A stretch of DNA of 7,745 nt, taken from positions 1-7,745 of the forward strand of contig NZ_JANQOY010000213.1 of assembly GCF_028285565.1 (NCBI RefSeq), read 5' to 3'. This stretch comes from Acaryochloris sp. IP29b_bin.148. GTDB taxonomy: Bacteria; Cyanobacteriota; Cyanobacteriia; Thermosynechococcales; Thermosynechococcaceae. The first letter of the stretch is position 1, and every line of letters begins with the position of its first letter. This document shows, piece by piece, positions 1-7,385 of the stretch. Made by a program: the position numbers and the translations under genes. The notes under the pieces were generated by a model that worked only from the letters and a program-made list of their open reading frames with translations, was not told the DNA's origin and did not search any database.

Positions 1-341
1 GAGCACATCTGGCCGATCATGATTTGGACCAAGAGACAACAGACATTAATTTTGCCAAACTCTGTGAAAGTAGCCGTACCGTTCTAGCACTCTTCCCTAT
101 GATGGCCGAGGTGAGGATTGTCAGAACATGGGCAGGGTTGGAAGCCTTTATGCCCGATCACATTCCTGTGATTGGTCCAAGTTCTAAATTCCCCAATGTT
201 TATCATGCGTTTGGGTTCTCTGCACATGGCTTTCAGCTTTCACCTGTGGTGGGGCGCATTATGTCAGAGCTGATTTTGGAACAGAAGAGTTCCCTCAGGA
301 TAGAACCATTTGCTATTCAGCGCTTCTCATCTATTTCTTAA
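1..341 (+). CDS. FAD-dependent oxidoreductase (DAO / glycine-sarcosine-D-amino-acid oxidase family), C-terminal fragment. The gene starts upstream of the window.
   Basis: The frame (codon phase from nt 3) is open from the window edge, so the TTG at 24 in the ORF track is not the real start. The C-terminal block 'VRTWAGLEAFMPDHIPVIGP...VYHAFGFSAHGFQLSPVVGRIMSELIL' matches the conserved C-terminal FAD-binding end of DAO-family flavoenzymes. Stop TAA at 339-341. Confidence 0.7.
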   Translation, partial: AHLADHDLDQETTDINFAKLCESSRTVLALFPMMAEVRIVRTWAGLEAFMPDHIPVIGPSSKFPNVYHAFGFSAHGFQLSPVVGRIMSELILEQKSSLRIEPFAIQRFSSIS

Positions 342-387
342 TAGGGTTAATTGAAAATATCAGAGTTGGTCATCAAAGTAACCTCCA

Positions 388-1038
388 TCATCCTACCCAG
401 ATCTCTTGGTCATAAAACCCTCCTCGCTGTTCCATCCGAAAGCCCCCCAGAAGCACCCCGATCAATACAGCAACAGGCACTAAGCCAAGCCCTTGCACCA
501 GCTCCACAAACGACACGGCACCCTTAGTTCCTTCTAAATATTCACGAATTGCACTAACCCAGGACGAAACATCCTCCACATGGCTAACCTTCAGGGCAAT
601 CGCTTCCCCAGACTCCAGCTCATCCACAAACTCCAAAACCGAATCCTTGCTGACTTCCCTTACAACGGACTCAATAGGATTCCCCGTGAACCCCTGACGT
701 CGCTTCCGTGACTTCGGCTGACGACACAGATCCGAGACATCCAAAAACATGGTCTGCTGAACCATCCCGGCCAAGAAATCCTCATCTAACACTGGGCCTT
801 GGGTGTTATGCCGATCCTCCCAATCCTGGATCAGCAGCTCTGCCCGCTGACAAAATACCTCAGTAATCCCAAGGGCCATCTCGCCAGCGACTTGGAGCCG
901 TTCGTGCTGAGATAGGGCTTGCAACTCTGGCAACATCCCATCCCAGAGCTGAAGGACATCTGCCTGCTCCGGTTCATCCAAAGCGGTGGCCAATGTACTG
1001 GCAAAATCTAGTTCAAGCTGAGTGTACATGGAGTTCAT
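388..1038 (-). CDS. Hypothetical protein (216 aa), acidic. The C-terminal about 45 aa resemble a kleisin/ScpA-type winged-helix tail.
   Basis: Long ORF whose start overlaps the upstream minus-strand ORF by 26 nt, suggesting translational coupling. An alternative ATG at 1029 would give a 17-nt overlap. The C-terminus 'VSFVELVQGLGLVPVAVLIGVLLGGFRMEQRGGFYDQEIWV' follows the pattern F-x-eL ... hydrophobic helix ... Q...F..eI.v seen at ScpA/kleisin C-termini. I recognise no other family. Confidence 0.55.
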   Translation of the reverse strand: MNSMYTQLELDFASTLATALDEPEQADVLQLWDGMLPELQALSQHERLQVAGEMALGITEVFCQRAELLIQDWEDRHNTQGPVLDEDFLAGMVQQTMFLDVSDLCRQPKSRKRRQGFTGNPIESVVREVSKDSVLEFVDELESGEAIALKVSHVEDVSSWVSAIREYLEGTKGAVSFVELVQGLGLVPVAVLIGVLLGGFRMEQRGGFYDQEIWVG

Positions 1039-1540
1039 CCTTCAACGGACAGTCCGCGATTTCGCACTCGGTCGGCTCCATGCGGATCGGGGGTTCAAAT
1101 TCCGTGATGCCAAACCGCTCTCGCAGTACTTTCAGCACCTCTATTAGGTACCGATTCACTTGGGTATTCGTCATCCCCATGCAGTGAACCGCCTCAATTT
1201 CCGCTAACTTCTCACTCCCCTGCCAGATGCTGATGGATAGGGCATGAAGGTGGGCATCCTTGGGCTTCTCCTTGTAGAGGTAAAGCAAAGCCACGGGTGG
1301 AGCTTGGACAGGAATCGAGAAGGTCTCTGTGGTTTTGGCTGGGGTTGTTTTTGCTTTCTGGTCAGCGTATTCTCCCCGGCGCTTGGCATTGCTTTCCTTG
1401 CGGTGGCGGTAGTGAGAGCGTTTGCGATCGCAGGTATTATCTTTCCAACAACCATCGCCTTGGGGACCATGCACCCGCTTGGCTTCCCTTCGGGAATAGT
1501 CGATGCATTTGAGACAGATTGGGTTAGGGGGAAGTGGCAT
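1013..1540 (-). CDS. Hypothetical protein (175 aa) with an N-terminal Cys cluster (possible zinc ribbon), a strongly basic linker and a C-terminal helical region.
   Basis: N-terminus 'ICLKCIDYSRREAKRVHGPQGDGCWKDNTCDRKR' has CxxC...Cx6C. A Lys/Arg-rich segment follows. The ORF is coupled by overlap to the downstream 388-1038 ORF. Three alternative-frame ORFs cover the same DNA, so the frame choice rests mainly on the coupling and on composition. Confidence 0.5.
   Translation of the reverse strand: MPLPPNPICLKCIDYSRREAKRVHGPQGDGCWKDNTCDRKRSHYRHRKESNAKRRGEYADQKAKTTPAKTTETFSIPVQAPPVALLYLYKEKPKDAHLHALSISIWQGSEKLAEIEAVHCMGMTNTQVNRYLIEVLKVLRERFGITEFEPPIRMEPTECEIADCPLKDELHVHSA
1424..1431. repeat. 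HIP1 octamer GCGATCGC (highly iterated palindrome of cyanobacteria), single exact copy.
   Basis: Exact GCGATCGC read at 1424-1431. It serves only as a taxonomic hint. Confidence 0.6.
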
Positions 1541-1852
1541 GGTTCGTTCTTTTGGATCAATACCCGTGATAGATCATCAAAATCGAGGGGCTGACAGGAC
1601 TCAATCAAATTTGTTAGCCATTAAAAAGCCCTTAAAAAGGCAATTATTTCCATCTCCAACAACGCCCTAGATTACAGAAATATCCTTAATAATTGCGTAA
1701 AGCATATCAAAAGTGCCGATAATTTTAGATGCGATTAAATTAAATTTCAAAATAGCGCTCCGTCACCATTAGCAATCTATTGCAGGCTGCCAGTTCTAAA
1801 CGCTCAACCAAATGGAAAAAAGACAACAAAATATCGCTTAGATTAACGCCGA

Positions 1853-2968
1853 ATGACGAGTCCGAACCCACCAGAACAGCAAACCATTCTCTTCCTCGCT
1901 GCGAATCCCAAAGATACTCAGCCTCTCCGACTAGATCAGGAGTTAAGGGATATTGGTGAGGGGTTACAGCGGGCTCAACGTCGAGATGAATTTCAGCTTG
2001 AACAGCGCCTGGCAGTTCGCCCCCGTGATATTCAGCGAGCCATGCTAGATCTGAATCCCCAGATCGTTCATTTCTCAGGGCATGGGGAAGGGGATGAGGG
2101 CTTGGTCTTTGAGGATGTCAGTGGCAACACCCAGTTGGTCAGTGGTGAAGCGATTGCAGACTTGTTTAGCCTGTTTGCCGATCAACTGCGCTGTGTGGTC
2201 CTCAATGGCTGCTATACCGAGGTGCAAGCAAATGCCATCTCAGAACATATCCCCTATGTGATCGGTATGAAACGTGCGATCCAGGATAAAGCGGCGATCT
2301 CCTTTGCTGTGGGATTCTATGATGCCCTAGGTTCAGGACGAGATGTGGAGTTTGCCTTCAAGTTGGGTTGCGCCGCTATCCGCATGGAAGGTATTGAAGA
2401 ACATCTCACCCCCGTTCTGATCAAAAAACCCATTACAGAAAGAACTAAGGATCAGGATAAGAGCAATGCTCAAGCTCGTCCAACACCCACGCCTTCTCCC
2501 ATGACTCAAAACGCCAACGACCCCTTAGAGGTTTTTATTTCCTATTCCCATCAGGATAATGAATTGCGAAAAAAGTTAGACACTCATCTTTCAGGTCTTA
2601 AACGCGAGGGTAATATTGTCGCTTGGCATGATCGGGCGATTGAAGCAGGGGAGGAATGGGACACCCAAATTAAAGGCCATCTTGAGTCTGCTCAAATTAT
2701 TCTGCTGCTGGTTAGCCCGGACTTCATCGCCTCCGACTATTGCTATGACATTGAGATGCAAAGAGCGATGGACCGACACAACGAAGGCACAGCTCGAGTC
2801 ATCCCCATTATTCTGCGTCCCTGTGATTGGAAGCGATCCCCTTTTAGTAAGCTGCAAAGCCTACCTAAAGAAGGACTACCCATCACACGATGGGACGATC
2901 AGGATGAGGCATTTTTGGATGTCGTCAATGGAATACGGAGGGCGGTAGAAACCCCACCAAAAAAGTAG
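1853..2968 (+). CDS. Fusion of a caspase-like (minimal CHAT) protease domain and a TIR domain, 371 aa as an isolated ORF. It is probably the N-terminal part of a larger CHAT-TIR-NB-ARC-TPR protein.
   Basis: aa 11-185: the hydrophobic strand 'ILFLAANP' is followed by 'IVHFSGHG' (His77, nt 2081-2083) and 'VVLNGCYT' (Cys120, nt 2210-2212). This is a caspase/CHAT-style strand-His-Gly ... strand-Cys dyad. aa 195-222: Pro/Thr-rich linker. aa 225-365: 'EVFISYSHQD', 'IILLLVSPDFIASDYCYDIE' and 'VIPIIL' form a TIR_2-like domain with a putative catalytic Glu301 (nt 2753-2755). The ORF ends CCA AAA AAG TAG. Confidence 0.85.
   Translation: MTSPNPPEQQTILFLAANPKDTQPLRLDQELRDIGEGLQRAQRRDEFQLEQRLAVRPRDIQRAMLDLNPQIVHFSGHGEGDEGLVFEDVSGNTQLVSGEAIADLFSLFADQLRCVVLNGCYTEVQANAISEHIPYVIGMKRAIQDKAAISFAVGFYDALGSGRDVEFAFKLGCAAIRMEGIEEHLTPVLIKKPITERTKDQDKSNAQARPTPTPSPMTQNANDPLEVFISYSHQDNELRKKLDTHLSGLKREGNIVAWHDRAIEAGEEWDTQIKGHLESAQIILLLVSPDFIASDYCYDIEMQRAMDRHNEGTARVIPIILRPCDWKRSPFSKLQSLPKEGLPITRWDDQDEAFLDVVNGIRRAVETPPKK
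2959..2965 (+). promoter_or_regulatory. Candidate -1 recoding site: slippery heptamer A_AAA_AAG immediately 5' of the TAG stop. It is also an A6 homopolymer prone to indels.
   Basis: Zero-frame codons are CCA AAA AAG TAG, so the X_XXY_YYZ heptamer is A AAA AAG, the same heptamer used at the E. coli dnaX -1 frameshift site. A -1 slip, or one extra A, continues as GTA GAC AAC ... in the NB-ARC frame. That frame is open from 2908 to 5409. Confidence 0.45.
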
Positions 2969-3117
2969 ACAACTCTTCGTCTGGGCACAGTCCACAAACG
3001 GAGAGTTATCAGCGTCAAGGACCAGAAGCCTCGTCATCCTCCCAGATAAGTCCTCCTCATAACCTCCCTCGCAGTGGTGTCGTTGAATTTGTCGGTCGTG
3101 ACCAAACACTGCTCGAA

Positions 3118-5409
3118 TTGCACCAGCTCCTCCAAGAGAACAATCCGGTAGCCCTCACCGCATTAGCAGGAATGGGTGGGATCGGTAAGACAGAACTCGC
3201 CCTGCAATATGCCATCTCCCAGCTCGATCAGGGTCATTATCCTGGTGGACTCTGCTGGCTGCGAGTAAAAGGCCAGGAGCTAGCCGCCCAAATTATCGAA
3301 TTTGCCCAGACCAAGTTAGCACTGCCCCTCCCGGATGAACTCGATGAAGACCAACAAGTGAGTTATGTCTGGGGGCACTGGCCTGCTGGAATGGTGCTGA
3401 TTATTTTTGATGATGTGATGGACCTTGAGACTGTCCAACCGTACTTACCGCCATCAGATCCACGTTATAAAGTTCTGATAACAACCCGTCAGGATTTAGG
3501 TCTATCCGTTCATTCCCTCTCTATCACCGAACTTAGCGATACTAGTGCCTTAACCTTGCTGAGAACGCTACTTGGAGCCGAACGCATTGATGCTCAGCTT
3601 GACGATGCCCAAGCCTTATGTAGATGGGTGGGGAACCTGCCCTTAGGACTAGAGTTAGTGGGGCGGTATCTAGCCAGAAAGCCAGACTGGTCTCTTCGAA
3701 AACTGATCGAAAGACTTGACTCCAAGCGATTAGAAGCCAAAGCCCTGACGACCCCAGAATCAGGAATGACCGCACAGCTTGGGGTCGCTGCTGCGTTGGA
3801 ATTAAGCTGGGTTGAGCTGAATAAGGTAGAACAAGAACTGGCCTGCTTTCTAGGAATGTTTGCGGTTGCACCTATTCCTTGGATTTTGGTTGAAAGCTGC
3901 CTATCTGCACAGGATTTAGATGACTTAGAAGACACCAGAGATGATGGTTTGATCGCTAGAAACTTACTCAAACGAGTAGACCAGGGTACTTACCAACTCC
4001 ATCAAATTATGCAGGAGTTCTTTCGGATTAAGTTGAATAAGCGCTCTGACAATGGAGAATTTCTCAAAGCAGCTTATTGCAGGGAAATGGTTGGTGTTGC
4101 TCTGGGTATTAATGACAGCCCAACGTTTGATGTGATTACAGGTATGAGTACCAGCATTCCCCATCTAGAAGAACTCGTCAAACAGTGGATAGACCATCTT
4201 AGCGAAAATGAATTGATTTGGCCCTATGTCGGCATCGGTCGATTTTATGAAGGGCAAGGGAACTATGGTTTAGCTTTACCCTGGAGACAAAAATGCCTGG
4301 AACAGGCTCGAAAGAAATTGGGTACCGAACACCCCGATGTTGCTCAATGCCTCAATGACCTGGCAGTACTCTACAACAATCAAGGACGGTACAACGAAGC
4401 CGAACCCCTCTATGTGCAAGCCTTGCAGATGAATCAGAAGCTCTTGGGTGCCGAACACCCCGATGTTGCAACGAGCCTCAATAACCTGGCAGTACTCTAC
4501 GACAATCAAGGACGGTACAACGAAGCCGAACCTCTCTATGTGCAAGCTTTGCTGATGAGACGGAAGCTCTTGGGTACCGAACACCCCTATGTCGCAACGA
4601 GCCTCAATAGCCTGGCGGAACTCTACAGAGCCCAAGGACGGTACAACGAAGCTGAACCCCTCTATGTGCAAGCCTTGCAGATGAGACAGAAGCTCTTGGG
4701 CTCCGAACACCTCGATATTGCTGAAAGCCTCAATGACCTGGCATTACTCTACTCCGACCAAGGACGGTACAACGAAGCCGAACCCCTCTATGTGCAAGCC
4801 TTGCAGATGAACCAGAAGCTCTTGGGCACTGAACACCTCGATGTCGCAACGAGCCTCAATAACCTGGCATTACTCTACGAAAAACAAGGACGATACAACG
4901 AAGCCGAACCCCTCTATGTGCAAGCCTTGCAGATGAGACAGAAGCTCTTGGGCTCCGAACACCCCTATGTCGCTCAAAGCCTCAATAACCTGGCATTCTA
5001 CTACTCCGACCAAGGACGGTACAACGAAGCCGAACCCCTCTATGTGCAAGCCTTGCAGATGAGACAGAAGTTCTTGGGCATCGAACACCCCTCTGTCGCT
5101 CGTAGTCTCAATAACCTGGCAATACTCTACGACAACCAAGGACGGTACAGCGAGGCCGAACCCCTCTATGTGCAAGCCTTGCAAATGTACAAGAAGCTCT
5201 TGGGCACCGAACACCCCTCTGTCGCTCGTAGCCTCAATAACCTGGCAAAGCTTTACTATAACCTAGGACGGTTCTCAGAAGCTGAAACCCTCTATGAGCA
5301 AAGTTTAGATATATTCCAGAAGCTCTTGGGCACCGAACACCCAAATACAGTTAAAGTTCAAAGTAATTTTGACGATTGTCGTCAAAAAATAAAGGAGTCG
5401 AATACTTAG
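3118..5409 (+). CDS. NB-ARC (STAND P-loop ATPase) protein with a C-terminal array of nine 42-aa TPRs (kinesin-light-chain-type, TPR_10/TPR_12-like). The true N-terminus almost certainly lies upstream of 3118.
   Basis: P-loop GMGGIGKT (3169-3192), Walker B LIIFDDV (3397-3417), RNBS-B-like VLITTR (3472-3489) and GLPL-like GNLPLGLELVG (3631-3663). A helical/winged-helix region follows, then TPRs from about 4240 to about 5350. The same frame is open back to 2908 and encodes 'HNLPRSGVVEFVGRDQTLLEL' at 3058-3120. This is the usual leader preceding the P-loop in cyanobacterial NB-ARC proteins. The only start-like codon before the P-loop is TTG at 3118. Confidence 0.9.
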   Translation: MHQLLQENNPVALTALAGMGGIGKTELALQYAISQLDQGHYPGGLCWLRVKGQELAAQIIEFAQTKLALPLPDELDEDQQVSYVWGHWPAGMVLIIFDDVMDLETVQPYLPPSDPRYKVLITTRQDLGLSVHSLSITELSDTSALTLLRTLLGAERIDAQLDDAQALCRWVGNLPLGLELVGRYLARKPDWSLRKLIERLDSKRLEAKALTTPESGMTAQLGVAAALELSWVELNKVEQELACFLGMFAVAPIPWILVESCLSAQDLDDLEDTRDDGLIARNLLKRVDQGTYQLHQIMQEFFRIKLNKRSDNGEFLKAAYCREMVGVALGINDSPTFDVITGMSTSIPHLEELVKQWIDHLSENELIWPYVGIGRFYEGQGNYGLALPWRQKCLEQARKKLGTEHPDVAQCLNDLAVLYNNQGRYNEAEPLYVQALQMNQKLLGAEHPDVATSLNNLAVLYDNQGRYNEAEPLYVQALLMRRKLLGTEHPYVATSLNSLAELYRAQGRYNEAEPLYVQALQMRQKLLGSEHLDIAESLNDLALLYSDQGRYNEAEPLYVQALQMNQKLLGTEHLDVATSLNNLALLYEKQGRYNEAEPLYVQALQMRQKLLGSEHPYVAQSLNNLAFYYSDQGRYNEAEPLYVQALQMRQKFLGIEHPSVARSLNNLAILYDNQGRYSEAEPLYVQALQMYKKLLGTEHPSVARSLNNLAKLYYNLGRFSEAETLYEQSLDIFQKLLGTEHPNTVKVQSNFDDCRQKIKESNT
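4255..5388 (+). repeat. Tandem array of nine 126-bp units (intragenic) encoding the TPRs.
   Basis: The landmark 'caaggacgg' (or a variant) recurs at 4255, 4381, 4507, 4633, 4759, 4885, 5011, 5137 and 5263, an exact 126-nt period. The 49-nt core 'ggacggtacaacgaagccgaacccctctatgtgcaagccttgcagatga' is exact at 4384, 4762 and 5014. It has 1 mismatch at 4636 and 4888, and about 3-4 at 4510 and 5140. The first and last units are diverged. Confidence 0.95.
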
Positions 5410-5559
5410 CTATCTGTTGATTAATAACATTAAGTGCGTAGTAATTTTATATAACTGAAATTTTTTATTTTATTCTATTGCCAAAAATTGAACCTCAGTA
5501 AATTCGTCAACCGAAGTATTAATTTTGTACATCTATGCTGTCCATTATTTCTTTACATA

Positions 5560-5733
5560 GGTCTTGGCCCTTTTTGAAACTGGTGGCGAAACATTGCTTA
5601 ACACGCTTAAAACACTTATATTGCATCATCAGCTATGAAAGAAAATTATAGTTTTGTAATGACATCAATGGCGGAATAAGTTTCCTAGACATTAACAAAT
5701 ATTTCGCCACCAGTTTCAAAAGAGGACAAGACC
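5560..5733. mobile_element. MITE-like hairpin element A (about 174 bp): 32-bp terminal inverted repeats around an AT-rich non-coding core of about 110 bp.
   Basis: Left arm 5560-5591 is 'ggtcttggccctttttgaaactggtggcgaaa'. The reverse complement of the right arm 5702-5733 is 'ggtcttgtcctcttttgaaactggtggcgaaa', giving 29/32 matches. I saw no transposase ORF and no clear target-site duplication. Confidence 0.5.
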
Positions 5734-5743
5734 CAACTTATGG

Positions 5744-6055
5744 TTAAAACCACAGTGTTTACGACACTACTGTCGTTGTCACCATAACCTTGCCGTTTTT
5801 TGAAAGCATAACCTTGCCGCTGCTAAGCCTGAAAGCCCTATTTTTTCGTTAAATCCATACTTACGATTGTAAACAGCCTGAAATCATAAAGTTGCCGAAA
5901 GTCGGATTTGTAAGCATAAGCTTACCGAAAGTTTTACTGAGAAATTGCTGAAAGCATTAATATCTCGTAGAAAGTCTTCAACGTATCCGGTAAATGACAC
6001 TCAAGCGGCAAGCTTATGCTTTCAAACGGCAAGGTTATGGTGACTGTGGTTTTAA
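5744..6055. mobile_element. MITE-like element B (about 312 bp): composite terminal inverted repeats of about 50 bp beginning TTAAAACCACAGT.
   Basis: The right arm (6005-6055), reverse-complemented, is 'ttaaaaccacagt caccataaccttgccgttt gaaagcataagcttgccgc'. The left arm (5744-5820) carries the same three blocks with one mismatch. It also has a 21-22-nt insertion that forms a small hairpin (acgac-actact-gtcgt) and three extra T. Both ends abut the palindromic TTAA. Confidence 0.5.
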
Positions 6056-6384
6056 GTAAAAGCTGACCGATCAATTAAACCAAAAGCTGTCCGCTTAAAG
6101 GCTGAAAACACTGATTTCTCGTTGACAGCTTCTTTGGAGTGGAATCGATCTTGCACTTAGAACTACTAATTCATTGGAATTTAACCATAAGATGTCCGAA
6201 AACCCAATCCTAGAATTGTAAAACGCTAAAAGCTATTTCCCATAATGATTTCACGTCCTAAAACCTATACATAATCTAACGAGAATACGTTGTTTTAGCG
6301 TATTACTCCATCTCCAAGAGGGTATTTTAGGCGGTTTATCACTTAGCTTTAAACCAATTACTGTCCTAGACGGTCAACTTTCCT

Positions 6385-6412
6385 TTAAAACCACAGTGAC
6401 AGCGACAACTAC
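6385..6412. repeat. Solo third copy of the element-B terminus (TTAAAACCACAGTG plus a related subterminal sequence).
   Basis: 'ttaaaaccacagtg' at 6385-6398 is identical to 5744-5757, in direct orientation. The next about 14 nt are partly similar ('gcgacaactac' against 'acgacactac'). I found no matching inverted partner downstream. Confidence 0.5.
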
Positions 6413-6435
6413 AGAAGTCAGTCGGGGAAACACGG

Positions 6436-6459
6436 TTTTTCGTGTAATTTTTCGTGTAA
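6436..6459. repeat. Perfect tandem duplication of the 12-mer TTTTTCGTGTAA.
   Basis: Read directly: 6436-6447 is identical to 6448-6459. Confidence 0.8.
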
Positions 6460-6487
6460 TACAGATAAGAAGAATTATTTGGAGTAG

Positions 6488-6526
6488 GAAAAATGGCAAA
6501 AATACCCCTTCAGGTAGGGGAAGGGG
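6488..6526 (-). terminator. Candidate rho-independent terminator of the toxin-antitoxin operon (minus strand).
   Basis: 7-bp GC-rich stem CCCCTTC (6505-6511) / GAAGGGG (6520-6526) with an 8-nt loop. On the minus strand it is followed by 'tatttttgccattttt' (complement of 6488-6504). It lies about 87 nt downstream of the toxin stop codon. Confidence 0.55.
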
Positions 6527-6612
6527 CTTGAAACGTGATTTTGGGATTTTCGGGGAGTAATGGCTTTGCTGAAATCTAGACTTTTGCCTATGGTTTGAGT
6601 GTCCGTTGCTCT

Positions 6613-7116
6613 CTATACGACACGTTTAGGGAGTGGATCGATTAAGGTAAGGGGAACATCAGGCAACTCTAAGAAACCACACTTATCGCGGTAAAAGGCA
6701 AAGGCGTTTTCATCCTTAGCTCTGACAATCAGAACTCGAACTCCGATCACATCGGCAGCAAGGAGAGTCTGAGCAACGGCATGATTGACTAGACCTCGTT
6801 CTAAACCTAAACCTTCATACCTCTGATCGACTGCTAATCGACCTAAAACGACGGCTGGAACTGGATCAGGTGCATTCCGCACTACCCGATTCGGTAGCCA
6901 TTGGCGTTGTACACTACCCGCAGACAAGCAATAATAGGCAACTACCTGATTTGACTTTTTTAGAGTAACTACAAAGACTCTGGAATATCCATAGCCATGA
7001 TTGTGCTTGGCCTTCTTTTGCAGCCAGGTATTGAGGATCGTGCTACTACTTTCAAAGGCTGACAGATCATGCTGCTCACCCAAAACCGTTGGCGGGTTAA
7101 AGGTTAACTTTCCCAC
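6613..7116 (-). CDS. GNAT-family N-acetyltransferase toxin of a type II TA system (TacT/KacT-like, partner of a DUF1778 antitoxin).
   Basis: 167 aa. It shows the typical layout of DUF1778-associated GNAT toxins: 'HDLSAFES...LNTWLQKKA', 'VVAYYCLSAGSV', 'PAVVLGRLAVDQRYEGLGLERGL' (acetyl-CoA binding region) and 'AFAFYRDKCGF'. Its start overlaps the antitoxin stop by 13 nt. Confidence 0.85.
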   Translation of the reverse strand: MGKLTFNPPTVLGEQHDLSAFESSSTILNTWLQKKAKHNHGYGYSRVFVVTLKKSNQVVAYYCLSAGSVQRQWLPNRVVRNAPDPVPAVVLGRLAVDQRYEGLGLERGLVNHAVAQTLLAADVIGVRVLIVRAKDENAFAFYRDKCGFLELPDVPLTLIDPLPKRVV

Positions 7117-7385
7117 GGTGCTTTATGTTCTTGTAAGGCTTTCCGGGCTGAGGAAGGTGGAGGAGGATTGTCTAAAATCTCCATAAAGGTATCCCACCCG
7201 CCATTCGACAGATAAAAAGTCGTCTGACCTAACAATAGTTCTTGGGCTTCTCGATAAGATGCATCTACCATGAACTCAGTTCTGGTCTTGCCTGCAACAG
7301 CCGCAGCTCTGTCGATGACATCTCCACGATGCGGATCAACTTTGAGATTGATCTTCTTCTTAGTGCTTTGAGTTGAAGCGGGCAT
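7104..7385 (-). CDS. DUF1778 (ribbon-helix-helix, TacA-like) antitoxin.
   Basis: 93 aa. 'INLKVDPHRGDVIDRAAAVAGKTRTEFMVDASYREAQELL' matches the DUF1778 RHH pattern. It sits upstream of, and overlaps, the GNAT toxin gene, which is the classic antitoxin-first operon order. An AGGAA Shine-Dalgarno-like sequence lies a few nt before the ATG. Confidence 0.85.
   Translation of the reverse strand: MPASTQSTKKKINLKVDPHRGDVIDRAAAVAGKTRTEFMVDASYREAQELLLGQTTFYLSNGGWDTFMEILDNPPPPSSARKALQEHKAPWES

Follow-up and report, generated by a model that had tools for sequence, protein, structure and literature searches.

Outside mobile elements and phages, −1 frameshifting in bacteria is to our knowledge rare, the known examples being dnaX, copA, and csoS2. 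In E. coli dnaX, a hairpin about 6 nucleotides (nt) downstream of A_AAA_AAG and a possible upstream Shine-Dalgarno (SD)-like element accompany the production of two proteins, tau and gamma, from one gene at a fixed ratio, with the shift leading to an early −1 stop and hence to the shorter product. The cellular genes copA and csoS2 also yield two functional isoforms by programmed −1 frameshifting (Atkins review, PMC5009743), the shifted isoform being the shorter one. In insertion sequences (IS) of the IS3/IS911 type (orfA-orfB) and in gag-pol, a slippery site near the end of the upstream open reading frame (ORF) and a stem-loop at 5–6 nt shift ribosomes into a long −1 ORF that lacks a start codon, giving two products that coincide at their N-termini; phage G/GT sites are of similar build, and A_AA.A_AA.G is the predominant frameshift heptamer of IS3/IS1 elements (PMC4066793). 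The Avs, bNACHT, and CHAT/TIR-STAND conflict systems (Kaur, Burroughs, Iyer, Aravind) follow a tripartite effector-NTPase-repeat logic, and occur as single polypeptides or as effector/NTPase pairs held together by adaptor domains (EAD, Death-like). Here, we analyzed a 7,745-nt stretch of DNA from Acaryochloris sp. IP29b_bin.148 (contig NZ_JANQOY010000213.1; hereafter the window), in which a CHAT-TIR effector ORF meets the NB-ARC-TPR frame of an NLR-like (STAND) immune-type gene, and we find that this junction is in all likelihood a programmed −1 ribosomal frameshift site of the gag-pol type. An initial annotation, made from the sequence alone, had offered such frameshifting as one of three explanations, and this is the one that fits the comparative tests it proposed: in an alignment of orthologous loci, A_AAA_AAG and the stop are conserved, and some relatives are single ORFs.

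The zero-frame ORF (ORF1; 1853–2968, on the plus strand like all features of the junction) encodes by standard decoding a CHAT + TIR effector module of 371 amino acids (aa) that is recognized by Pfam and PADLOC, and its 3′ end reads GAA ACC CCA CCA AAA AAG TAG. The slippery heptamer A_AAA_AAG (2959–2965, with the A6 run at 2959–2964) lies in the X_XXY_YYZ phase of ORF1, and the zero-frame stop TAG (2966–2968), which reads GTA in the −1 frame, abuts it. The −1 frame is open from 2908 to a TAG at 5407–5409, is the same frame as that of the 3118–5409 ORF, and reads VDNSSSGHSPQTESYQRQGPEASSSSQISPPHNLPRSGVVEFVGRDQTLLELHQLLQENN...GMGGIGKT 3′ of the heptamer. Between 2965 and 3117 it thereby encodes a Ser/Pro-rich linker and then the conserved NB-ARC leader SPPHNLPRSGVVEFVGR, without a start codon of its own. 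The initial annotation had described the heptamer at the stop, the A-tract, and their positions, and every element was present as described; it had also noted that one extra A gives back a single ORF, which holds, and that the −1 frame contains no ATG or GTG before 3118, which can be extended to TTG. None of these three codons occurs in the −1 frame between 2908 and 3117, the earliest being the TTG at 3118 (3118–3120), and the only near-cognate codons ahead of it are ATT 2911, ATA 3046, and CTG 3109. Read across the junction (...ETPPKK-VDNSSSGH...), the fused product computes to 371 + 814 = 1185 aa, in agreement with the length of about 1185 aa given earlier, and its trans-frame junction peptide after Lys cleavage would be VDNSSSGHSPQTESYQR.

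With IS3/IS911 and gag-pol, the locus shares A_AAA_AAG near the end of the upstream ORF, a stem-loop predicted at 5–6 nt, and a long startless −1 ORF that would give two N-terminally coincident products. The earlier label 'dnaX-type' holds for the heptamer, which is identical to that of E. coli dnaX, but not for the outcome: here the −1 frame runs for 814 codons and leads to the longer product rather than the shorter one, and because the shift yields the long product, the outcome is gag-pol or IS3-like. Like copA and csoS2, the gene is a non-mobile chromosomal or plasmid gene that appears to use −1 frameshifting for two isoforms; unlike this gene, copA and csoS2 are not immune genes, are not modular across downstream domains, and make a shorter shifted isoform. 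The SD-like GGAGGG (2937–2942), within the invariant block ATACGGAGGGCGGTAGA, lies 17 nt 5′ of the heptamer, compared with reportedly 10 nt in dnaX, and this exceeds the spacing of 10–14 nt that is optimal for such elements in E. coli. It is invariant in the Acaryochloris loci, whereas other lineages have GGAG 8–11 nt upstream or lack it; it is a possible upstream stimulator of frameshifting.

A blastn comparison with plasmids gave six full-length loci in the finished plasmid sequences of three Acaryochloris strains in culture, with two each in A. marina S15, A. marina MBIC11017 (pREB7 and pREB8), and Acaryochloris sp. 'Moss Beach' (pMB04 and pMB06). Together with the window, all seven loci align without a gap over 350 nt, carry AAAAAAGTAGAC, and have an invariant heptamer. 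The two codons ahead of the Lys codons vary (CCA CCA, CTG ACA, CCA CTA, or CTA ACA), and the base before AAAAAG is nevertheless A in all seven. These loci settle the third of the earlier explanations, an error of sequencing or assembly in the homopolymer, to which the origin of the window from a metagenome bin had lent some weight. It is effectively excluded, because the A6-G-TAG junction is the same at all six of these finished loci and recurs in many independent, unrelated assemblies.

The −1 frame is open for 722–890 codons in 5 out of 7 Acaryochloris loci. In pooled Nei-Gojobori estimates over these loci, the ratio of nonsynonymous to synonymous change (dN/dS) was 0.19 at the end of the TIR region and 0.16 in the NB-ARC region after the TTG, with a range of 0.16–0.24 for NB-ARC. 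For the 51-codon linker/leader it was 0.48 in the −1 frame, 0.75 in the zero frame, and 1.45 in the +1 frame, the latter two of which also hold stops. By these ratios, the Acaryochloris −1 ORF is under purifying selection. The share of codons with a variable third position averages 0.45 and reaches 0.6–0.87 in the flanks, but falls to 0.13–0.27 at approximately 2942–2990, with the minimum (0.13) centred on the proposed frameshift site. Several codons within this stretch swap their amino acid and yet keep their third base, which is the usual mark of an RNA-level signal laid over coding sequence.

A stimulatory hairpin is predicted directly downstream (2968–3010), with a main stem of 10 bp (2971–2980 with 2998–3007) and an inner stem of 5 bp (2982–2986 with 2990–2994). 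It starts 5–6 nt after the heptamer, the canonical spacing, and has energies of −18.1 and −19.4 kcal/mol (z = −5.7 and −5.0; none of 200 shuffles as stable). For these statistics we relied on dinucleotide shuffles of trimmed hairpins; mononucleotide shuffles of 60-nt segments gave weaker z values. The hairpin is kept in all seven Acaryochloris loci, including one change from U-G to C-G, and in other lineages, stems of 8 bp or more and of different sequence begin 3–7 nt after the site. Reading the hairpin as an intrinsic terminator was considered and rejected: it has no U-tract, no plus-strand terminator was called between the ORFs, and the ORF runs through it. Rfam covariance models gave no match at the gathering score in the window, and at 2850–3150 only a chance snoRNA (E = 1.4). 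The junction combines what is looked for in a frameshift site, namely a phased slippery sequence, a long startless −1 ORF, a predicted 3′ structure, and reduced synonymous variability.

We propose that ribosomes translating the CHAT-TIR ORF would meet A_AAA_AAG with the slow-to-decode stop UAG as the next codon and a hairpin of about −19 kcal/mol 5–6 nt further on. Most of them would terminate and release the free 371-aa CHAT-TIR effector, and a fraction would slip back by one base, the two tRNA-Lys re-pairing from AAA-AAG to AAA-AAA. Slipped ribosomes would read GUA (Val), then the Ser/Pro linker, the NLPRSGVVEFVGR leader, NB-ARC, and the TPR array, so that slippage would yield a 1185-aa CHAT-TIR-NB-ARC-TPR protein. 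That the slippage is ribosomal and actually occurs, and how efficient it may be, we infer from these signals in the sequence; the tRNA-Lys repertoire affects the efficiency of A_AAA_AAG sites. The purpose could be, as in dnaX, a fixed ratio of two products, in this case of free to sensor-tethered effector, with the free CHAT-TIR being for example recruited by, or buffering, an activated sensor oligomer.

The database annotation treats the downstream part as a separate protein, a 763-aa 'tetratricopeptide repeat protein' (P0001) that begins at TTG 3118. Accordingly, the locus could hold two genes by design, with the NB-ARC-TPR protein starting on its own at that TTG or at ATT 2911, ATA 3046, or CTG 3109, perhaps by termination-reinitiation, and acting in trans with CHAT-TIR, with no translation, or only a vestigial role, left for the linker and leader. 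Homologues do include effector/NTPase pairs that are joined by adaptor domains (EAD1, PF19955). We nevertheless found no conserved start codon for the −1 ORF among the orthologues: TTG 3118 is TTA in L003, and ATA 3046 is GCA, GAA, GTG, or GTA elsewhere. No SD sequence precedes TTG 3118, and no orthologue has a canonical start and ribosome-binding site ahead of the NLPRSG motif, the arrangement that the initial annotation had named as speaking against frameshifting. The annotated N-termini of close Acaryochloris homologues of the 763-aa protein are short and inconsistent (MHQLLQ..., MQDLHQ..., MAITAISGMGGIGKT, and MGGIGKT, some of them inside the P-loop), and the NLPRSG..FVGR leader is absent from all of these annotated proteins.

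It had been argued before that TTG 3118 would cut off the leader. The leader is indeed lost, but the Pfam NB-ARC match, which begins at nt 3103, upstream of the TTG, would lose only about 5 residues. The stronger argument against this start is the conservation of NLPRSGVVEFVGR in homologues. Nearly all changes in the stretch PPHNLPRSGVV(E/K)FVGR are synonymous among the Acaryochloris loci, and the leader motif is an integral, internal part of fused homologues (P0002-4, P0010, P0028). TTG 3118 is thus probably not the true N-terminus of the NB-ARC-TPR protein.

To see how far the site recurs, we scanned species-representative genomes and metagenome data and looked up exact protein sequences, which gave approximately 170 further loci (the look-ups for P0006, P0017, and P0165 gave no match). 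We defined class A as TIR ORFs that end in NNA AAA AAG followed by TAG or TAA and have a long −1 ORF open across the junction. Beyond Acaryochloris, the heptamer and stop with a long −1 ORF were found in L019, L030, L023, L024, L033, L081, L169, L171, L175, and L179, and the heptamer is also invariant in L020 and L172, which makes at least 12 cyanobacterial lineages besides Acaryochloris. Its phase relative to the upstream ORF is kept in all 13 lineages, and the stop (TAG or TAA) abuts it in every frameshifted lineage. The −1 module differs from lineage to lineage. It is NB-ARC, by tblastn and the GMGGIGKT P-loop, in Stenomitos (L019; the contig ends after 194 aa) and in Acaryochloridaceae SU_2_1 (L030; the −1 ORF is broken after 167 aa by a second shift, which lies at about 2051 and may be an error given an assembly coverage of 2.3x). 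An ATPase of about 300 aa with a GQRRSGKTSL P-loop is found on metagenome contig L175, where Pfam assigns it to AAA_16, and likewise on metagenome contig L169 and in the Elainellaceae metagenome-assembled genomes (MAGs) L023 and L024. By Pfam, the module is NACHT/NB-ARC-like + TPR in Cyanobacteria bacterium J06638_22 (L033), NB-ARC + WD40 on metagenome contig L171 (metagenome contig L179 shares its leader and P-loop), and TPR only in a Prochloraceae MAG (L081).

Among these class A lineages, the linkers differ wholly in sequence and length, and the heptamer and abutting stop are constant. Third-position identity between lineages is 0.26–0.56, which is near saturation, and yet NNA AAA AAG is invariant, a codon choice with a chance of about 0.05 per lineage. 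As 13 lineages agree at each of the heptamer's three synonymous positions while other synonymous sites are near saturated, the recurrence is, on this comparison, more than chance would give. A long −1 ORF follows in 11 out of 13 heptamer lineages, compared with 4 out of 24 short-tailed TIR ORFs without the motif (Fisher p = 9e-5); this count is conservative, as L098, L085, L053/L055, and L132 were scored as controls despite their long −1 ORFs. The −1 ORFs of L023 and L024 have a dN/dS of 0.12 at a proportion of synonymous differences (pS) of 0.51.

These lineages also bear on the two-gene explanation. The next ORF is in the −1 frame across the stop in all 13 heptamer lineages, and in L047 and L081 this frame opens just 2–4 codons ahead of the site. 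The sole true two-gene case is L167, where the TIR ORF ends GCA AAG AAG TAA, so that KK is kept in a non-slippery form, the spacer is AT-rich, no hairpin is found (−3.1 kcal/mol), and the following gene lies in frame 0 with an ATG of its own. Taken with the missing start signals, and in spite of several GTG and TTG codons in the class B leaders described below, this makes two separate genes an unlikely explanation.

Class B sites differ in the slippery sequence. Here, the TIR ORFs end in (A/G)AC CCT TA(G/A) or ACC CCT TA(G/A), a C_CCU tetramer followed by the stop and without a homopolymer (L038 1340–1398; L040 3448–3506; L043 3430–3488; L047, a Leptothoe kymatousa isolate, 3430–3488; L078 2059–2117; L119 731–789). 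In E. coli, six tetramers, C_CC.U among them, are active in −1 shifting when a 3′ stimulator is present (PMC4066793). In the −1 frame, N/T/D-P-L leads on into NB-ARC, with Pfam recognizing NB-ARC + WD40 repeats on L043 and NB-ARC alone on L119, and the class B −1 ORFs have a dN/dS of 0.09 (pS 0.66). When the class B and Acaryochloris sequences are aligned without gaps, their stops line up, and both groups have the hairpin arms CUCU(U)CG and CG(G)AGAG. Across this joint set, 90% of the cells pair, compared with 42–51% when the partner strand is slid, and there are compensatory changes at three pairs, one of them being A-U in 6 and C-G in 5 sequences. The covariation score is 0.185, versus 0.088 in shuffles (0 out of 500).

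The two site types help to distinguish ribosomal from transcriptional slippage, in which RNA polymerase would add a base on the A6 run and some mRNA would carry A7 and encode the fused protein. A homopolymeric A run does lie at the junction, and one added A restores a single ORF. Efficient transcriptional slippage in bacteria takes runs of about 8–9 or more, and A6 is shorter than that. Transcriptional slippage would also leave several features without a role: the phase of the heptamer, which is strictly kept, matters only for tRNA re-pairing, the conserved hairpin at the ribosomal spacing of 5–6 nt would be of no help to RNA polymerase, and the zero-frame stop always follows the heptamer directly. 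Furthermore, the class B sites have C_CCU and a stop in the homologous column with the same hairpin, but no homopolymer on which a polymerase could slip. A slipping polymerase is well established as the alternative route for Thermus dnaX and for certain IS elements (Atkins review, PMC5009743), but we consider this mechanism quite unlikely here.

Homopolymers are also hot spots for indels, and the remaining explanation, raised in the initial annotation as a genuine A6/A7 indel, is that the junction is an inherited or recurrent frameshift mutation, that is a split gene or pseudogene, perhaps phase-variable, of which only CHAT-TIR is in use. The loci lie on IS-rich plasmids, and some copies carry further lesions (L003, L005, L030, and L172). 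However, the more than 25 loci compared include no A5 or A7 variant, and the downstream ORFs are intact over 300–1158 aa, with dN/dS values of 0.09–0.24 (pS as high as 0.66). Random indels should place the stop at varying distances, but it is always adjacent, and synonymous variation is suppressed at the heptamer, the stop, and the hairpin. Moreover, decayed heptamers are seen where the downstream ORF has gone: the broken heptamers of L177 (GCA AGG AAG TAG) and L018 (TCC CAA AAG TAG) are followed by −1 remnants of 23 and 11 aa. With purifying selection downstream and an unchanging A6, this explanation is very improbable.

In three sensor subfamilies, both in-frame and frameshifted versions exist. 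The in-frame fused relatives comprise NB-ARC-TPR proteins (P0002-4; 1125–1132 aa), NACHT-like-TPR (L016, L025, L032, and L035), and AAA_16 (L034 and L036), and their existence indicates that the long protein is a real architecture. L016 (3432–3500), L025 (3432–3500), and L032 (1314–1380) retain GCA AAA AAG CC(T/C) in frame, and their −1 frames close after 8, 9, and 3 codons, respectively; in L016 and L032, a hairpin lies 4–6 nt downstream of the heptamer. It is these relatives, with an in-frame heptamer and a −1 stop after 3–9 codons, that have the true dnaX-like configuration, and they possibly reach the same two products by the reverse route.

Several observations weigh against a programmed −1 frameshift, or at least against its generality. 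The support is throughout comparative or predictive, and the window itself derives from a metagenome bin. The predicted hairpin is no better than shuffled sequence in L019 (z = −0.15) and in L023, L024, L033, and L081 (about −1.1 to −1.5), and the SD-like element is not universal across lineages and lies 17 nt from the heptamer in the window. The KK dipeptide is conserved at the TIR C-terminus, including in the fused relatives, three of which keep an in-frame A_AAA_AAG, so the constancy of the heptamer could be owed in part to shared ancestry or to constraint on the protein. In L172 and L020, the heptamer persists beside only a short −1 ORF (82 and 35 aa), the P-loop of L172 being mutated to RSDKT (4608–4855), and among the Acaryochloris loci, L003 has a second frameshift in NB-ARC (~3798–3822) and L005 is truncated in the TPR array (~5079). 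As the downstream ORFs of L003, L005, L020, and L172 are damaged, the arrangement also decays in places.

More tentatively, at somewhat less than even confidence, we suggest that the junction is a portable recoding cassette within a cyanobacterial NLR-like family, with swappable sensors and the stoichiometry of the two products as a selected trait. The cassette would consist of the TIR C-terminus, A_AAA_AAG or C_CCU, the adjacent stop, and the hairpin, and its partners would be NB-ARC-TPR, NB-ARC-WD40, NACHT-like-TPR, AAA_16, and TPR-only modules. Fused relatives with an in-frame heptamer and hairpin would arrive at the same two products from the opposite direction. Free TIR/caspase-like effector could, for instance, form a pool that is seeded by the activated sensor oligomer or that buffers it. 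In contrast to IS3/IS911 and gag-pol, the host of the site is neither a transposase gene nor a virus but a cellular immune-type STAND/NLR-like gene, the heptamer of every lineage runs directly into the zero-frame stop, one cassette is joined to at least four downstream sensor modules, and no Rfam frameshift element matches. Short effectors are common: the CHAT-TIR module has 5,429 homologues, approximately 85 of the top 120 CHAT-TIR clusters are 357–373 aa long, and approximately 60 of the 94 clusters examined end in ...SL.KK, as ORF1 does.

The likeness to anti-phage STAND systems lies in the predicted CHAT + TIR effector, the central NB-ARC, and the C-terminal TPR/WD40, and in the plasmid-borne position beside other STAND genes; the difference is that effector and NTPase would be joined by recoding. 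In a full-text literature search combining frameshifting with TIR, STAND, NLR, cyanobacteria, or Acaryochloris, we found no report of it for such immune genes, and frameshifting in STAND/TIR immune genes is not mentioned in the GeneTack survey, the Atkins review, the bNACHT paper, or the Death/TRADD-N paper. The recoding mechanism is well known, and what is new is the gene class, the putatively portable cassette, and the two site types. If our reading is true, dozens to hundreds of cyanobacterial 'TIR domain-containing protein' and shortened 'tetratricopeptide repeat protein' entries are halves of one gene, and an immune effector is deliberately made both free and sensor-tethered, which bears on the oligomerisation-driven activation of TIR and caspase-like effectors and on their safekeeping beforehand. 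The A_AAA_AAG-stop, C_CCU-stop, in-frame, and decayed heptamers would also form a natural variant series for the evolution and polarity of recoding signals.

The encoded domains are those expected of a bacterial NLR-like (STAND) protein, with an NB-ARC domain bearing a Walker A P-loop followed by a repeat sensor. On ORF1, Pfam recognizes CHAT at aa 11–165 (E = 1.2e-9, 38.5 bits, cut-off 24) and TIR_2 at aa 227–336 (2531–2860; E = 6.6e-18, 65.8 bits, cut-off 28). The TIR domain contains the motif SDYCYDIEM, which we take to mark the position of the catalytic Glu in NADase TIRs. By inspection, ORF1 has both this Glu motif (SDYCYDIE) and a GHG...NGC His/Cys dyad, each of which may be catalytic. 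The NB-ARC NTPase domain spans 3103–3741 (E = 3.3e-13, 49.9 bits, cut-off 23.5), with the P-loop GMGGIGKT at 3169–3192, and is followed by a TPR_12 sensor array of about nine 42-aa repeats (4216–5409, up to the −1 ORF stop TAG; E = 8e-153). The repeat units at 4216–5406 are near-identical (...LNNLA.LY..QGRY.EAEPLYVQAL.M..KLLG.EHP.VA.S...), and the repeat number varies among the Acaryochloris paralogues (−1 ORFs of 722–890 aa), which suggests expansion and contraction of the array. PADLOC matched at the domain level only (ThsB-like TIR, E = 1.3e-62; 'chat'; TPR), and none of its system-level models matched the window.

Further TIR ORFs may represent additional recoding variants or overlapping genes: in the non-cyanobacterial or unassigned L098 (1340–1413), L085 (3430–3500), L053/L055 (~3436), and L132 (~2942), a −1 ORF of 167–340 aa runs across the stop. 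L098 and L085 have a perfect 10–11-bp hairpin directly after it, and no slip motif is recognizable in any of these loci. L015 was considered as the same arrangement and rejected, as its TIR and NB-ARC are more than 1 kb apart and in the same frame.

On the Acaryochloris plasmids (L001 1–2626; L002–L006 1–2086) and in two metagenome loci (L167 and L172, both 1–3433), a large NB-ARC-WD40 (APAF1_C) gene precedes the CHAT-TIR ORF by approximately 70–140 nt and shares its strand. No such gene is present in the window, where the upstream ORFs (388–1540) are on the minus strand and without a Pfam match. At the start of the window (24–341, plus strand) is the C-terminal portion of an FAD-dependent oxidoreductase of the DAO family (Pfam model positions 280–353), listed as an ORF from an internal TTG, the gene probably beginning upstream of the window. 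Downstream of the −1 ORF, 1.2 kb (5410–6612) contain no ORF of at least 60 aa and form a patchwork of short segments that are repeated between genes on many Acaryochloris plasmids, including a segment of about 145 nt (6432–6576) that recurs on pREB7 and pREB8 immediately 3′ of the homologous TPR genes. Beyond it, a TacA-like antitoxin gene (7104–7385, minus strand; Pfam TacA1, E = 1.5e-19) overlaps a GNAT acetyltransferase gene (6613–7116, minus strand) by 13 nt, and 6613–7385, beside the immune gene, resembles a toxin-antitoxin pair of the TacAT type.

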